From sequence record MN895435.1: a DNA stretch of 64,000 nt; one strand, given 5' to 3'. The stretch comes from Escherichia phage teqhal. A program made the translations under genes and the position numbers. Shown here piece by piece: positions 48,889 through 55,388 of this stretch (position 1 is the first letter of the stretch; each line of letters opens with the position of its first letter). The notes below the pieces were generated by a model, which did not search any database, was not told where the DNA came from, and saw nothing but the letters and a program-made list of their open reading frames with translations.

Positions 48889-49157
48889 TGTTTGTTGTTC
48901 ACACTATTTATGAAAATGAAGGTAATACTACACGTGATTACGGTCACGTAAATCAATTTTTTAGATGCAATCCAGAATTCCGAGCTCAAAAAGACGAACG
49001 AATTTTTAAAAAATGTGTAGAGCAAGGTTTCATTTACGTCAAACACTGGATGCAAGGAAATAAAGTTAGAACCACGTACCACAGGTCTTTGACTGAGCTT
49101 AATGATGAATTGATTTATAATAGAGCTGTAAACCAAACTCTAAAGGATGAACAATGA
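48888..49157 (+). CDS. hypothetical protein, 89 aa
   Basis: TAATG overlap; immediately upstream of gene 30. Confidence 0.45.
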   Translation: MFVVHTIYENEGNTTRDYGHVNQFFRCNPEFRAQKDERIFKKCVEQGFIYVKHWMQGNKVRTTYHRSLTELNDELIYNRAVNQTLKDEQ

Positions 49158-50617
49158 TTCTTAAAATTCTGAACGAAATAGCATCTATTGGTTCAACTAA
49201 GCAGAAGCAAGCAATTCTTGAAAAGAATAAAGATAATGAATTGCTTAAACGAGTATATCGTCTGACTTATTCTCGTGGGTTGCAGTATTATATCAAGAAA
49301 TGGCCTAAATCTGGTATTGCTACCCAGAGTTTTGGAATGTTGACTCTTACCGATATGCTTGACTTCATTGAATTCACGTTAGCTACTCGGAAATTGACCG
49401 GAAATGCGGCAATTGAGGAATTAACTGGATATATTGCTGACGGTAAAAAAGATGATGTTGAAGTTTTGCGTCGGGTGATGATGCGAGACCTTGAATGCGG
49501 TGCTTCAGTATCTATTGCAAACAAAGTTTGGCCAGGTTTAATTCCTGAACAACCTCAAATGCTTGCAAGTTCTTATGATGAAAAAGGCATTAATAAGAAT
49601 ATCAAATTTCCAGCTTTTGCCCAGTTAAAAGCTGATGGAGCTCGGTGTTTTGCTGAAGTTAGAGGTGATGAATTAGATGATGTTCGTCTTTTATCACGAG
49701 CTGGTAATGAATATCTAGGATTAGACCTTCTCAAAGAAGAGTTAATCAAAATGACCGCTGAAGCCCGCCAGATTCATCCAGAAGGTGTGTTAATTGATGG
49801 CGAATTGGTATACCATGAGCAAGTTAAAAAGGAGCCAGAAGGCCTAGATTTTCTTTTTGATGCTTATCCTGAAATTAGTAAAGCTAAAGAATTCGCCGAA
49901 GTAGCTGAATCACGTACTGCATCTAATGGCATCGCCAATAAATCTTTAAAGGGAACCATTTCTGAAAAAGAAGCACAATGCATGAAGTTTCAGGTCTGGG
50001 ATTATGTCCCGTTGGTAGAAGTATACGGTCTTCCAGCATTTCGCTTGAAATATGATGTACGTTTTTCTAAATTAGAACAAATGACATCAGGCTATGATAA
50101 AGTAATTTTAATTGAAAACCAGGTAGTAAATAACCTAGATGAAGCTAAGGTAATTTATAAAAAGTATATTGACCAAGGTCTTGAAGGTATTATTCTCAAA
50201 AATATCGATGGATTATGGGAAAATGCTCGTTCGAAAAATCTCTATAAATTTAAAGAAGTAATTGATGTTGATTTAAAAATTGTAGGAATTTATCCTCACC
50301 GTAAAGACCCTACTAAAGCAGGTGGATTTATTCTTGAGTCAGAGTGTGGAAAAATTAAGGTAAATGCTGGTTCAGGCTTAAAAGATAAAGCCGGCGTAAA
50401 ATCACATGAACTTGACCGTACTCGCATTATGGAAAACCAAAATTATTATATTGGAAAAATTCTAGAGTGCGAATGCAACGGTTGGTTAAAATCTGATGGC
50501 CGCACTGATTACGTTAAATTATTTCTTCCAATTGCGATTCGTTTGCGTGAAGATAAAACTAAAGCTAATACATTCGAAGATGTATTTGGTGATTTTCATG
50601 AGGTAACTGGTTTATGA
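49154..50617 (+). CDS. 30: ATP-dependent DNA ligase
   Basis: 487 aa, the T4 ligase length; adenylation motif KADGAR. Confidence 0.9.
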   Translation: MILKILNEIASIGSTKQKQAILEKNKDNELLKRVYRLTYSRGLQYYIKKWPKSGIATQSFGMLTLTDMLDFIEFTLATRKLTGNAAIEELTGYIADGKKDDVEVLRRVMMRDLECGASVSIANKVWPGLIPEQPQMLASSYDEKGINKNIKFPAFAQLKADGARCFAEVRGDELDDVRLLSRAGNEYLGLDLLKEELIKMTAEARQIHPEGVLIDGELVYHEQVKKEPEGLDFLFDAYPEISKAKEFAEVAESRTASNGIANKSLKGTISEKEAQCMKFQVWDYVPLVEVYGLPAFRLKYDVRFSKLEQMTSGYDKVILIENQVVNNLDEAKVIYKKYIDQGLEGIILKNIDGLWENARSKNLYKFKEVIDVDLKIVGIYPHRKDPTKAGGFILESECGKIKVNAGSGLKDKAGVKSHELDRTRIMENQNYYIGKILECECNGWLKSDGRTDYVKLFLPIAIRLREDKTKANTFEDVFGDFHEVTGL

Positions 50618-50802
50618 AAGCTTACTTAGAAACAGTTGTCGTAGCTCAAAAAGAAGGTGGAGATGTTTCTACTTCTGTATCACAAGTCGTTCTCGAATTT
50701 GTAGATGCATATGCTTATAATAAATTTACAGAAACATTTGATGCCTATGAAAAAGGTCCAAAGTTTGAAATATACCGTACTCTCTTACCACTAGATTATT
50801 AA
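50614..50802 (+). CDS. hypothetical protein, 62 aa
   Basis: ATGA overlap with ligase stop; followed by hairpin. Confidence 0.45.
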   Translation: MKAYLETVVVAQKEGGDVSTSVSQVVLEFVDAYAYNKFTETFDAYEKGPKFEIYRTLLPLDY

Positions 50803-50818
50803 AGGCCTTCGGGCCTTT
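50801..50818 (+). other. UUCG tetraloop hairpin (weak terminator or stability element)
   Basis: aaaggcc-ttcg-ggccttt. Confidence 0.4.
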
Positions 50819-50854
50819 AATTTTATAAATAGAATAAACACTAGAGAGGATATG

Positions 50855-52948
50855 ATGGAACTCATTACAGAATTATTTGACGAAGATACTACTCTTCCGA
50901 TTACAAACTTAAATCCAAAGAAGAAAATACCACAAATTTTTTCAGTTCACGTTGATGATGCAATTGAACAACCAGGCTTTCGTTTATGTACCTATACATC
51001 TGGAGGTGATACTAATCGCGATTTAAAGATGGGCGATAAAATGATGCATATTGTTCCTTTTACATTAACTGCTAAAGGTTCAATTGCTAAATTGAAAGGT
51101 CTTGGTCCAAGCCCAATTAATTATATCAATTCAGTTTTTACTGTTGCAATGCAAACAATGCGTCAGTATAAAATTGATGCCTGTATGCTCCGTATTCTTA
51201 AGTCTAAAACTGCTGGTCAAGCTCGACAAATTCAAGTTATTGCTGATAGACTTATCCGTAGTCGTTCAGGTGGAAGATACGTCCTTCTTAAGGAACTCTG
51301 GGATTATGATAAAAAGTATGCATATATTCTTATACATCGCAAAAATGTATCACTAGAAGACATTCCAGGAGTTCCGGAAATTAGTACCGAGCTCTTTACT
51401 AAGGTTGAATCGAAGGTCGGTGATGTTTATATCAATAAAGATACTGGAGCTCAAGTAACTAAAAATGAGGCAATTGCAGCATCTATTGCACAAGAAAATG
51501 ATAAACGTTCTGACCAAGCTGTAATCGTTAAAGTTAAAATTTCCCGTAGAGCAATTGCACAAAGTCAGTCATTGGAATCTTCTAGATTTGAAAGTGAATT
51601 ATTCCAGAAGTATGAATCTACCGCAGCTAATTTCAATAAACCTGCTACTGCTCCTTTAATTCCCGAAGCAGAAGAAATGAAGCTTGGAATTAATTCATTA
51701 GCTTCTAAAACTAAGGCAGCAAAAATTATTGCCGAAGGAACTGCGAATGAACTTCACTATGACTATAAATTCTTTTCAAAAAGTGAGGTTAATGAAGTTT
51801 CCGAAAAAATTAAAGATGTAATTCTTAATGCGATCAAAAATGAACCAACTACTTCAATAAAATGTTTAGAGAAATACGCAGCAGCTGTCAATCAATTCTT
51901 TGAAAAATATAAAGATAATTGGCTTGATAAACATAATAAAACTCGTAAAGGGCAGCCAGATGAAGTCTGGGAAGAAATAACTAAAAATTCCTGGAACGCA
52001 GCAAAAACTAAATTCCTCAAACGAATGATTTATAGTTTTTCTGGAATTGGTGCAGGCCCAATGATTGATATTACTATTGCCCGCGATGGTTCTAAATATA
52101 CTCCATCACAAAAGCGTGGCATTAGAGAATATTGCGGTTCAGGATATACTGACATCAATAATCTTCTTTTAGGTCGTTACAATCCAGAACGATATGATGT
52201 AATGAGTGAAAAAGAAATTGAATCTGCTATAAATAATTTAGATTCAGCTTTTGAAAATGGTGACCGTATACCAGAAGGCATTACAGTTTATCGTGCTCAA
52301 AGCATGACTGCTCCTATATACGAAGCACTAGTTAAAAATAAAGTGTTCTATTTCAGAAATTTTGTATCTACTTCTTTAACTCCTATCATTTTTGGACGTT
52401 TTGGAATTACACATGCTGGTATTGGTCTTTTAGAACCAGAAGCTCGTAACGAATTAACGGTTGATAAAAATGAAGAAGGAATAACTATTAATCCAAACGA
52501 AATAAGAGCGTATAAAGAAAATCCTGAATACGTTAAAGTTCAAATAGGATGGGCAATTGATGGAGCTCATAAAGTTAATGTTGTATATCCAGGAAGTCTC
52601 GGAATAGCAACAGAAGCTGAAGTTATTCTACCGCGCGGATTGATGGTTAAAGTTAATAAAATAACTGATGCTTCTAATAATGACGGAACCACGTCTAATA
52701 ATACAAAACTCATTCAAGCTGAAGTTATGACCACAGAAGAACTCACCGAATCGGTAATCTATGACGGAGACCATTTAATGGAAACCGGCGAAGTAGTTGC
52801 AATGACAGGTGATATTGAAATAGAAGACAGAGTTGACTTTGCATCATTTGTTTCATCAAATGTTAAACAGAAAGTAGAATCATCTCTTGGAATTATTGCG
52901 TCTTGCATAGATATTACAAACATGCCTTACAAGTTCGTTCAAGGATAA
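50855..52948 (+). CDS. Alt-family ADP-ribosyltransferase, paralog 1
   Basis: 697 aa; candidate R-S-E motifs (VYRAQ, FVSTSL, EAEVILPRG); N-terminal MELITELFDE leader; N- and C-termini near-identical to the downstream paralog. Confidence 0.8.
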   Translation: MELITELFDEDTTLPITNLNPKKKIPQIFSVHVDDAIEQPGFRLCTYTSGGDTNRDLKMGDKMMHIVPFTLTAKGSIAKLKGLGPSPINYINSVFTVAMQTMRQYKIDACMLRILKSKTAGQARQIQVIADRLIRSRSGGRYVLLKELWDYDKKYAYILIHRKNVSLEDIPGVPEISTELFTKVESKVGDVYINKDTGAQVTKNEAIAASIAQENDKRSDQAVIVKVKISRRAIAQSQSLESSRFESELFQKYESTAANFNKPATAPLIPEAEEMKLGINSLASKTKAAKIIAEGTANELHYDYKFFSKSEVNEVSEKIKDVILNAIKNEPTTSIKCLEKYAAAVNQFFEKYKDNWLDKHNKTRKGQPDEVWEEITKNSWNAAKTKFLKRMIYSFSGIGAGPMIDITIARDGSKYTPSQKRGIREYCGSGYTDINNLLLGRYNPERYDVMSEKEIESAINNLDSAFENGDRIPEGITVYRAQSMTAPIYEALVKNKVFYFRNFVSTSLTPIIFGRFGITHAGIGLLEPEARNELTVDKNEEGITINPNEIRAYKENPEYVKVQIGWAIDGAHKVNVVYPGSLGIATEAEVILPRGLMVKVNKITDASNNDGTTSNNTKLIQAEVMTTEELTESVIYDGDHLMETGEVVAMTGDIEIEDRVDFASFVSSNVKQKVESSLGIIASCIDITNMPYKFVQG

Positions 52949-52951
52949 ATC

Positions 52952-55009
52952 ATGGAACTTATTACAGAATTATTTGACGGCGCTTCGGCGCCGGTTGTTA
53001 ACTTAAATCCTAAGCATAAAATACCACAAATTTTTGCTATTCAAGCCGGCGAAGAAAGTGTGCTTCCTGGATTTAGATTTTGTACATACACCTCTGGCGG
53101 TGATACAAATAAAAACGTTAAGCCAGGCGATAAAATGATGCATATCGTAATGATAGGCGTCAACGAGAAATTATCGCTGGTTAAGCTTAGAAACTTGGGT
53201 GGAAATCCAATTGGCGTCATTAATGCGGTTTTTGATACTGCTCTTCAAACAATGAAGCAGTATAAAATCGACGCATGCTTATTCCGCGTACTAAAAAGTA
53301 AAACAAATGGCGCAGCTCGTCAAATGCAAGTTATTGCTGACCGTTTAGTACGTACTAAAGGAGCAGGTCGATATGTTCTTTTAAAGGAAATCTGGGATTA
53401 TGATAAAAAGTACGCATATATTATGGTTTACCGTAAAAATGCCAAATTAGAAGACATTCCAGGTGTACCTCCTATTTCAACTGAGTTATTCACAAAAGTT
53501 GAATCAAAGGTTGGTGATGTTTATGTAGACGTTAAAACAGGTAATGCTGTTCCTAAAGCTGTTGCTGTTGCTGCTTCTATTGCTTTAGAAAATGATAAGC
53601 GCACGGATCAAGCTGTTATTCAGAAAACTAAAATTAGTCGTCGATTAGCAGCGCAAGCTCAATATTCTACTGTTGATGCTTCACTTCAGGGTGATAGCTT
53701 CGCTGCTAAGAAATATCAAGAGTTTGAATCTAAAGTTCCGGTATATAAAGCAGAAGGACCAATGAACTCTGGCGTTATTCAGATTGGTTCAAACTTTAGC
53801 AAAGGAGCTATCGGTGGTATGAGAAGTGCTTCTCGTTTTAAATCTAGCGATTATGAACTAGAAAGTTTCCGAAATCATATTGCATTAGCCCATGCACGTT
53901 TACGTGATCCATCTATCAAGTTGCAGAGCGATATAACATATCAAGGTTCTCAAGAATATTTAAAGAATAAAGAATTCTTTGATTATAAAACTGATAAAAT
54001 TTTAAGCGATCTTGCTGATATTAATATTTCTAATAGCTTTGATGTTATTAAGAAAATTATCAATGATTTGGTTAAAGGTTCTAAAGCTACGCCAGATGAA
54101 AAGACAGCTATTATTCAATTTGTCATGAATGGCATTTATAAATTGATTAATGAATCTGCTGCTCAGGCATATGAATACGCAAGCACTGAAGTAACTCCAA
54201 AAGGACTGACTCAGGCTGAGTCTGATGTAATTGAAGATTATTGTGCAGATTCATATGTTGAAATGAACTCGTTCCTTTTGGGTAAACCAGATTCTACCCG
54301 TGAAGAATATATGGAACGAGCTATTAAGCACATTGAGACGTTGGATTCTGCATTCGCTAAAGGTTCAGTTCTTCCTCCAGGAACTACGCTTTATCGTGGA
54401 CAAGAAGTTACCTTTAAAACTTTGCGTCATAACATTGAAAACAAAATGTTCTATTTCAAGAACTTCGTATCGACATCGCTTAAACCAAATATCTTCGGTG
54501 AGCATGGTAAAAACTATATGGCTCTAGATGATTCCGGTGCAGTATTTTCTGGCGAAGGAGAAGGTTCTGTTGATGCAGAAGATTTAATGCATATGGGTAG
54601 TCATTCTGCATATGCTAATGAAGATGCTGAAACTAGCGTAGGTATGGTAATTAAAGGGGCTGAGCGAATCAAAGTTATCGTTCCAGGTCATTTATCAGGA
54701 TTTCCATCAGAAGCTGAAGTTATTCTACCACGTGGAATTTTGTTAAAGATTAATAAAGTAAGCACGTACATGATGAAAGAAACTGCTTATAACAAGTATC
54801 TAATCGAAGGCACAATCGTTCCTCCTTCTGACCAATTAGAAGAATCAGTATATGATGGCGACCATTTAATGGAAACTGGTGAAGTTCGTCCAATGGCTGG
54901 ATTTAATCAATTCCTTGTAGAAGAATCAAAAGAAGAGGAAAACGAAGTTTCTCAAATCTTGGCTTCTTTGGTTAACATCAACGGAATGTCTAAAAAGTTC
55001 AAAATGTAG
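52952..55009 (+). CDS. alt: Alt-family ADP-ribosyltransferase, paralog 2 (685 aa, closest in size to T4 Alt)
   Basis: 685 aa; candidate R-S-E motifs (LYRGQ, FVSTSL, EAEVILPRG); shared MELITELFDG leader; which paralog is the T4 alt orthologue is uncertain. Confidence 0.7.
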   Translation: MELITELFDGASAPVVNLNPKHKIPQIFAIQAGEESVLPGFRFCTYTSGGDTNKNVKPGDKMMHIVMIGVNEKLSLVKLRNLGGNPIGVINAVFDTALQTMKQYKIDACLFRVLKSKTNGAARQMQVIADRLVRTKGAGRYVLLKEIWDYDKKYAYIMVYRKNAKLEDIPGVPPISTELFTKVESKVGDVYVDVKTGNAVPKAVAVAASIALENDKRTDQAVIQKTKISRRLAAQAQYSTVDASLQGDSFAAKKYQEFESKVPVYKAEGPMNSGVIQIGSNFSKGAIGGMRSASRFKSSDYELESFRNHIALAHARLRDPSIKLQSDITYQGSQEYLKNKEFFDYKTDKILSDLADINISNSFDVIKKIINDLVKGSKATPDEKTAIIQFVMNGIYKLINESAAQAYEYASTEVTPKGLTQAESDVIEDYCADSYVEMNSFLLGKPDSTREEYMERAIKHIETLDSAFAKGSVLPPGTTLYRGQEVTFKTLRHNIENKMFYFKNFVSTSLKPNIFGEHGKNYMALDDSGAVFSGEGEGSVDAEDLMHMGSHSAYANEDAETSVGMVIKGAERIKVIVPGHLSGFPSEAEVILPRGILLKINKVSTYMMKETAYNKYLIEGTIVPPSDQLEESVYDGDHLMETGEVRPMAGFNQFLVEESKEEENEVSQILASLVNINGMSKKFKM

Positions 55010-55062
55010 TTTACAAGTTCCTTATGTTGTGTTATAGTAGTCTTACTGACATAACATGAGGA
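55009..55062 (+). promoter_or_regulatory. promoter-plus-hairpin cassette, copy 2
   Basis: Near-identical to 39188..39242: GTTTACA then hairpin ccttatgtt...aacatgagg with the SD in the right arm. Confidence 0.5.
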
Positions 55063-55069
55063 ACACAAA

Positions 55070-55360
55070 ATGAAATCTTCTTTGCGCTTTTTAGGTCAAG
55101 AACTTGTAGTTGAAGGCGTTATTCCTGCTGATAACGCTTTTAATGAAGCAGTTTACGATGAATTTATTAAAATTTTTGGAACAGATAAAAAGTTCGGAAT
55201 TTTTCCTTCTGAAAATTTTTCAAAGTCAGAACAGACTGAAAGTATTTTTCAGGGTGTAGTAACAGGTAAATTTGAGTCAGAAGCTCCGGTAAAAATTGAA
55301 GTTTATATTGAAGACAGTTTAGTTGCTTCAGTTGCTGCTTTCATTTCATTCCGTAAATAA
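55070..55360 (+). CDS. hypothetical protein, 96 aa
   Basis: ORF downstream of the cassette; followed by a hairpin shared with convergent gene 54. Confidence 0.5.
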   Translation: MKSSLRFLGQELVVEGVIPADNAFNEAVYDEFIKIFGTDKKFGIFPSENFSKSEQTESIFQGVVTGKFESEAPVKIEVYIEDSLVASVAAFISFRK

Positions 55361-55365
55361 AAATA

Positions 55366-55385
55366 TGGGGACCGAAAGGTCCCCA
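55366..55385. terminator. hairpin between convergent genes (55070 ORF on +, gene 54 on -)
   Basis: tggggacc-gaaa-ggtcccca GNRA-loop hairpin in the 28 bp gap between convergent stop codons. Confidence 0.55.
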
Positions 55386-55388
55386 TTG

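Follow-up and report, generated by a model that had tools for sequence, protein, structure and literature searches.

The Alt protein of phage T4 is an arginine-specific mono-ADP-ribosyltransferase. It is the classic injected host-takeover enzyme, and nearly all experiments on it were done in T4, which is the exception. Here we describe the corresponding locus in a 64,000-nucleotide (nt) stretch of the Escherichia phage teqhal (sequence record MN895435.1), hereafter the window, which is a segment of a T-even (Tequatrovirus) phage and whose positions are used as coordinates throughout. The locus contains two adjacent genes, Alt-A (50855..52948, + strand, 697 amino acids (aa) plus stop) and Alt-B (52952..55009, + strand, 685 aa plus stop, named 'alt.-2' in phage RB32). 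With a probability of roughly 70%, the two are functional paralogs of T4 Alt that are made late, packaged, processed by gp21 and injected, and that probably act on different targets.

T4 Alt is a protein of the prohead core, where it is present in about 40 copies (PMC5694885, PMC9026906). It is trimmed by gp21 at both ends, after I-T-E6 and after L-T-E619, with the removal of 63 C-terminal residues, as determined by mass spectrometry (PMC5694885). Only T4 Alt is known to ADP-ribosylate the E. coli RNA polymerase alpha subunit, a reaction called 'alteration' (PMC5512222). The activity of T4 Alt is abolished by mutation of an ExE Glu, numbered E577 by the authors (PMC11404850); in the translation of NC_000866 the ExE Glu residues are 574 and 576.

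Several other known systems share parts of this arrangement. The T4 proteins ModA and ModB, which fall in the same clade as Alt (PMC5512222), carry an R-S-ExE signature that can be aligned with the ADP-ribosyltransferase (ART) domains of Alt-A and Alt-B. However, each is just an ART of about 200 aa and lacks the N-terminal Tevenvirinae domain, the helical middle and the propeptides that Alt-A and Alt-B have, and they are products of early genes and are not injected. The bacterial ADP-ribosylating toxins, such as C3-like toxins, Vis, Certhrax, iota/CDTa and VIP2, belong to PF03496, as do Alt-A and Alt-B. The internal proteins of T-even phages are packaged in the head, cut by gp21 after L/I-x-E and ejected with the DNA, and they vary from one T-even phage to another (PMC9026906). 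They are small, number about 360 per head as against about 40 for Alt, and have a demonstrated targeting sequence of 10-19 residues, in which they differ from Alt with its propeptides of 6 residues at the N terminus and about 55-65 residues at the C terminus.

Domain anatomy and catalytic site of Alt-A and Alt-B

Alt-A and Alt-B are 41% identical over their full length (BLASTP, E 4e-159), and at this E-value their likeness is not due to chance. Both proteins matched PF03496 (ADPrib_exo_Tox; curated cut-off 23.4 bits), Alt-A with 129.3 bits (E 1.5e-37) and Alt-B with 73.2 bits (E 2.3e-20), and both matched phrog_802, 'Alt-like RNA polymerase ADP-ribosyltransferase', from end to end (E 6e-273 and E 7e-256, respectively). 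PF26846 (Tevenvirinae_ADPRT) was found as a precomputed match on a cluster representative that is 99% identical to Alt-B, and on other family members. A sequence-only reading of the window had taken the two open reading frames (ORFs) of 697 and 685 aa for adjacent Alt-type paralogs, and both their coordinates and this relationship are confirmed by these comparisons. The exact proteins are in GenBank under phage teqhal (QHR63753.1 for Alt-A and QHR63754.1 for Alt-B), and the clusters formed at 90% identity comprise 641 sequences for Alt-A and 772 for Alt-B. NCBIfam had no model for either protein, and sequence and fold searches of the PDB returned matches to toxin ART domains only and no solved Alt structure.

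The boundaries of the protein parts were taken from a three-way alignment with T4 Alt and from codon-level comparison, and the AlphaFold models of Alt-A and Alt-B agree with this division (predicted local distance difference test, pLDDT, 83 and 83.5; predicted template-modelling score, pTM, 0.76 and 0.73). The leader, MELITE, comprises residues 1-6 (50855-50872 in Alt-A and 52952-52969 in Alt-B) and is a predicted propeptide that is identical in the two proteins. It is followed by an N-terminal domain (residues 7-240) that begins as an alpha/beta structure and continues with helices, and that in Alt-B is 67% identical to its counterpart in Alt-A. The middle domain, spanning residues 241-412 in Alt-A (51575-52090) and 241-415 in Alt-B (53672-54196), is all-helical, and here the identity falls to 13-26%. 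In the ART domain (residues 413-630 in Alt-A and 416-625 in Alt-B, or approximately 416-625 in the alignment) the identity is 20-56%, with a conserved core. Within it, between the STS and ExE motifs, lies an insert of roughly 55 residues (approximately 518-573) that is essentially unalignable between the two (0-6%). Beyond the ART domain is the cleavage-site block ESV(I)YDGDHLMETGEV, of 17 residues and near-identical in the two proteins (residues 632-648 in Alt-A and 631-646 in Alt-B), and then a C-terminal tail that ends in a helix.

Conserved ends around a divergent middle had already been proposed for the pair, and this picture holds with three amendments. The near-identical leader is real, with the first nine residues, MELITELFD, the same in both proteins, but conservation is not limited to the leader and runs on for about 240 residues at 50-80% identity. 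The near-identity of the C termini applies to the cleavage-site block and not to the last 35 or so residues, which are only about 25% identical. The middle has indeed diverged, but the divergence that had been placed in a single central stretch of about 250 residues is distributed over two segments, approximately 240-420 and 518-573, which sum to roughly 235 residues.

The candidate R-S-E motifs suggested earlier are present in both proteins. In Alt-A they are R480 (52292-52294), S505-T-S507 (52367-52375) and E587-A-E589 (52613-52621), and in Alt-B R482 (54395-54397), S507-T-S509 (54470-54478) and E587-A-E589 (54710-54718). They align with the corresponding residues of T4 ModA (R72, S109 and E163-x-E165) and ModB, and the alignment, proposed as a check for the loss of a catalytic Arg or Glu from one copy, showed that both copies have kept them. 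In an alignment of 62 proteins drawn from the 50%-identity representatives of the whole Alt family, the invariant positions were the start Met, Tyr430 and Asp465 of the ART domain, the catalytic Arg and Ser, the two Glu residues and the P-R-G that follows them. The models give the catalytic domain of both proteins a predicted ART fold. Comparison with RB32 gave ratios of nonsynonymous to synonymous substitution rates (dN/dS) of 0.056 for Alt-A and 0.044 for Alt-B, which indicates strong purifying selection on both genes. It is very likely, judging from sequence, that Alt-A and Alt-B are both active enzymes, and the ExE signature suggests that they would ADP-ribosylate arginine.

Probable late expression, predicted gp21 sites and proposed packaging

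The pair lies between gene 30/alt.1 and gene 54 and behind a late promoter, which is the position of a T-even Alt. Upstream of Alt-A, the order is the alt.1 stop codon, a hairpin, TATAAATA, GAGAGG and ATGATG, and T4 is arranged alike. The hairpin, read from the sequence, is a terminator 3' of the alt.1-like gene (50803..50824, + strand; AGGCC-TTCG-GGCCT followed by a T-rich run), and the same element precedes alt in T4. The T4-type late promoter box TATAAATA (50824..50831, + strand) is the sole one immediately upstream of the pair; it is located 24 nt upstream of the Alt-A start codon, a position that is conserved in T4. The ribosome-binding site GAGAGG (50844..50849, + strand) ends 5 nt before the ATG at 50855. 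Two in-frame ATG codons are found here, the first at 50852, which would give a protein of 698 aa, and the second at 50855, which gives 697 aa. The second is most likely the true start, because of its 5-nt spacing from GAGAGG, the T4 annotation, the same ATGATG in T4 and the resulting propeptide of six residues.

Only 3 nt separate the TAA of Alt-A from the ATG of Alt-B. Alt-B has its own ribosome-binding site, AAGGA, within the 3' end of Alt-A (52940..52944, + strand), and no late promoter box was found directly upstream of its start. For these reasons, co-transcription of Alt-B with Alt-A, possibly with translational coupling, appears the likeliest arrangement, and late expression of Alt-B would follow from it.

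Both proteins carry predicted gp21 sites at the two ends. In Alt-A these are ITE-6 and L-T-E632 (52742-52750), which would release a C-terminal propeptide of residues 633-697, and in Alt-B they are ITE-6 and L-E-E631 (54836-54844), with a predicted propeptide of residues 632-685. The shared N terminus had been regarded as a processing signal, and it does contain the ITE-6 site that was mapped in T4 Alt (PMC5694885). Across the family, both cleavage-motif Glu residues are at least 90% conserved, a figure that refers to motif presence only, and the leader is anywhere between about 5 and 17 residues long. The near-identical C-terminal block coincides exactly with the gp21 cleavage site, and this position, together with the conserved sites, supports that Alt-B is handled like Alt. 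The conserved sites and the operon structure make it quite probable that Alt-B is packaged. As to what directs packaging, a targeting role of the leader was demonstrated only for IPIII (PMC9026906); in Alt, the N-terminal domain of 240 residues and the C-terminal propeptide could be equally good targeting candidates.

We propose the following course for the pair. The TATAAATA promoter at 50824 would drive late transcription of a single unit that covers Alt-A and Alt-B, and both proteins would be built into the prohead core via the shared N-terminal domain and/or the terminal propeptides. There gp21 would trim both after Glu6 and after the Glu of L-x-Glu at about residue 631, to leave mature proteins of about 625 residues, which would leave the head together with the DNA and, in the first seconds of infection, modify host proteins. 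The parts for packaging and processing and the catalytic core have stayed constant, while the helical middle and the ART insert have diverged until barely recognisable, most likely giving the two enzymes different host targets.

Mosaic alleles, distribution and loss of the second copy in T4

T4 Alt (gpAlt, NP_049811, 682 aa) occupies the same locus as Alt-A, between DNA ligase/alt.1 and gp54, and shares with it the upstream hairpin, the late promoter, the ATGATG start, the R-S-ExE residues and both gp21 sites. The identity between the two proteins is uneven: it is about 100% in residues 1-250, drops to 13-43% in the middle, rises to 60-73% in the ART domain and reaches about 96% over the C-terminal 60 residues. 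At the DNA level, the part of the window at 51661-52091, within the Alt-A middle domain, has no similarity to T4. By this comparison, Alt-A is a mosaic allele relative to T4 Alt and not a simple ortholog. Neither Alt-A nor Alt-B has the T4-type middle domain, and since the mosaic has flanks of 96-100% identity around a segment unlike T4, at least three unrelated middle types (T4, A and B) occur on one chassis. T4 Alt is 41% identical overall to Alt-B. In RB32 the products are nearly the same as in teqhal, with 98.9% identity between RB32 Alt and Alt-A and 99% identity, over the full length, between RB32 alt.-2 and Alt-B.

Whether reference T4 carries the same duplication had been left as a question, and it does not: only a remnant of the second copy is present. 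The T4 genes alt.-1 (61 aa) and alt.-2 (67 aa) encode products that match Alt-B residues 1-56 and 62-116 at 95-96% identity, so that T4 retains the first 117 or so codons of the Alt-B gene, split by a 1-nt frameshift. The frameshift is the loss of one A from a run of five (window 53110-53114). In addition, T4 (locus L001 5066-5451 was compared) lacks the 1,699 base pairs (bp) between two copies of a 9-bp direct repeat, CTAAAAAGT, which in the window lie at 53291..53299 (left copy, + strand) and 54990..54998 (right copy, + strand). The route by which T4 lost the gene is, from these repeats, a microhomology-mediated deletion. Because alt.-1 and alt.-2 can be derived from Alt-B by the loss of one A and the 1,699-bp deletion, they are best read as an Alt-B remnant, and the single-copy state of T4 is derived. 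The database notes have this reversed, with a 'duplication of the first part of alt' in the T4 record and an 'apparent insertion' in the RB32 record, and are less accurate.

The gene pair itself is already known and present in hundreds of T-even genomes; the RefSeq records of T2, T6, RB32 and numerous other phages name both genes 'Alt-like RNA polymerase ADP-ribosyltransferase'. The alt genes of T2, T4 and T6 were reportedly compared by Koch & Rüger in 1994. Paralogs of alt in T4-like phages were noted by Nolan et al. 2006 (PMC1524935), and our literature search on the second Alt paralog found no functional work. Megablast with the region returned 541 phage records, 353 of them at a coverage of at least 80%, including T2, T6, RB32, RB27, RB3 and many isolates. 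An Alt-B-type body was present in 401 records and an Alt-A-type body in 324, and a T4-type body was found among roughly 150 partial matches. A second Alt paralog is thus carried by roughly three quarters of the matching records (401/541). One metagenomic phage (L006) combines a T4-type Alt with Alt-B.

To survey arrays more widely, 62 distinct IMG/VR loci from T4-like phages were compared. Full-length Alt-family genes numbered one in 42 loci, two in tandem in 12 and three in 2, and several loci carried truncated or ART-only extra ORFs. The tandem pairs compared, from 16 other loci, all showed the same contrast: the conserved regions were about 47-68% identical, the middle only 7-20%. Averaged over pairs from the whole family, identity was lowest in the middle (12%), followed by the insert (22%), and was higher in the ART core (37-38%) and the N-terminal domain (40%). 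The two loci with three tandem genes are L011 (2852-9121) and L039 (6986-12779). In L039 the three copies resemble one another more than they resemble any other lineage, a pattern suggestive of lineage-specific duplication or concerted evolution.

Natural fusions between the two paralogs were also found. Four proteins (P0003, P0004, P0005 and P0007) are clean single-crossover chimeras from A to B, with junctions at residues of about 50, 105, 185 and 222, all in the shared N-terminal domain. In three contigs (L068 4001-6061, L069 4001-6055 and L004 5001-7061) no Alt gene other than the chimera lies between alt.1 and DUF5498. The fusion contigs are identified by ERZ27282683, SRR24155011 and SRR19633722. 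Such A::B fusions are the product expected of unequal crossover between the paralogs, and the location of the crossovers marks the N-terminal domain as common functional hardware and as a recombination substrate. An assembly artefact is an unlikely source of the chimeras, since the exact words shared by the paralogs are shorter than the k-mers of assemblers, the four crossovers are distinct and clean, and contigs as long as 65 kb and 110 kb contain two of them. Recent gene conversion between Alt-A and Alt-B in teqhal was also considered and rejected, as their N-terminal domains are 57-82% identical in nucleotides and the longest exact match is 22 nt. Taken together, the comparisons indicate that T-even phages commonly carry both genes and did so ancestrally, and that single-copy states would result from a deletion or from unequal crossover in the N-terminal domain that the genes share. 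A few points seem to add slightly to the database annotations: the T4 loss route, the A::B fusion series, and the finding that both paralogs, and the family as a whole, have kept the C-terminal cleavage site.

Alternative readings, meaning and neighbouring features

Several points weigh against the reading of Alt-A and Alt-B as two injected enzymes with different targets. T4 grows well without Alt-B, and the A::B fusion phages do without the body of Alt-A; neither effector is therefore essential, which leaves room for redundancy. The confidence of the models is low exactly in the variable insert (residues 518-530), so that the role of the insert in substrate choice is conjecture. Targeting by the leader or by the N-terminal domain is only presumed for Alt itself. 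We found no proteomic, transcriptomic or enzymatic data on Alt-B from any phage in the literature. The late-promoter octamer is not enriched in the window, with 10 matches against 10 expected, and the promoter call at 50824 is supported by its position and its conservation in T4, not by the octamer count. Finally, a second exact TATAAATA occurs inside Alt-A (52228-52235), about 720 nt upstream of the Alt-B start. It could drive Alt-B separately or be a chance match. A separate promoter for Alt-B was not adopted, as no late box lies directly upstream and the internal TATAAATA is compatible with chance.

It appears reasonably likely, from the divergent middle and insert, that the host targets of Alt-A and Alt-B differ. 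If the two were instead redundant, they would share one set of host substrates, with the RNA polymerase alpha subunit foremost, and the second copy would do no more than increase the amount injected or provide a backup. The identical catalytic motifs, with the same ExE signature of arginine specificity, fit such a role, as does the fact that either body is dispensable in nature (that of Alt-B in T4 and that of Alt-A in the A::B fusions). Yet duplicates kept for dosage should stay similar or decay, and here the middle and the ART insert are at 0-26% identity while each gene has a dN/dS of about 0.05; moreover, every tandem pair compared again combines conserved ends with a divergent middle. We therefore consider redundancy unlikely.

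More doubtful still is that Alt-B is made but not packaged, and either acts late in the producing cell or has a structural role in the core. The literature search found no virion proteomics for any two-copy phage and thus none for Alt-B, and Alt has been described as a core component besides being an enzyme (PMC11404850). An enzyme of the producing cell, however, has no reason to keep prohead-protease sites, and Alt-B has kept both gp21 motifs and the N-terminal domain, parts that are common to packaged T4 Alt, and is apparently co-transcribed with Alt-A from a late promoter in a unit adjoining baseplate genes. That one copy is a decaying pseudogene or a dead pseudo-enzyme, for which the decayed second copy of T4 (alt.-1/alt.-2) and the IMG/VR loci with truncated or ART-only ORFs offer precedents, is very improbable given the low dN/dS and the large clusters of both, and a dead copy is excluded for this window, on the sequence, by intact frames with the invariant catalytic residues.

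With two functional, injected paralogs as the preferred reading, a further proposal can be made more tentatively, at slightly short of even odds: Alt-B may be a fourth, uncharacterised ADP-ribosyltransferase of T-even phages, co-injected with Alt and acting on other targets, possibly defence or stress factors rather than RNA polymerase. The putative target-recognition parts of Alt-B are unrelated in sequence to those of T4 Alt. If the proposal is true, the three ADP-ribosyltransferases of T4 in textbooks understate the injected set of most natural T-even phages, because laboratory T4 has deleted Alt-B. The N-terminal domain and the two propeptides would then form a reusable packaging chassis, on which 'warheads' made of the middle and the ART domain are swapped by recombination. 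A natural series of variants is available, comprising A plus B, T4-type plus B, T4-type alone and the A::B fusions, and with this series one could ask which proteins each 'warhead' modifies and which part is responsible for packaging.

The surroundings of the pair are as follows. Upstream lie the DNA ligase gp30 gene (49154-50617) and the alt.1-like gene of 62 aa (50614-50802), which belongs to PF24647, 'Phage blade protein'. Downstream is a DUF5498 gene of 96 aa (55070-55360; 'alt.-3' in T4), followed by a bidirectional hairpin terminator that closes the transcription unit (55365..55386) and, beyond, by the gp54 and gp48 genes on the opposite strand. Both small flanking genes belong to families of no known function. 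Genes of these two families border the alt array in the examined loci with called genes, except for L005, where no blade-family gene was called upstream of the array. Scans of the window for tRNA and Rfam families found no RNA genes. Right after the Alt-B stop codon, at 55010-55038, is a sequence that is a good match to a sigma-70 or T4 early promoter (TTTACA, a spacing of 17 nt, and TATAGT with an upstream TG). If this promoter works, the DUF5498 gene would be expressed early while the alt pair is expressed late.

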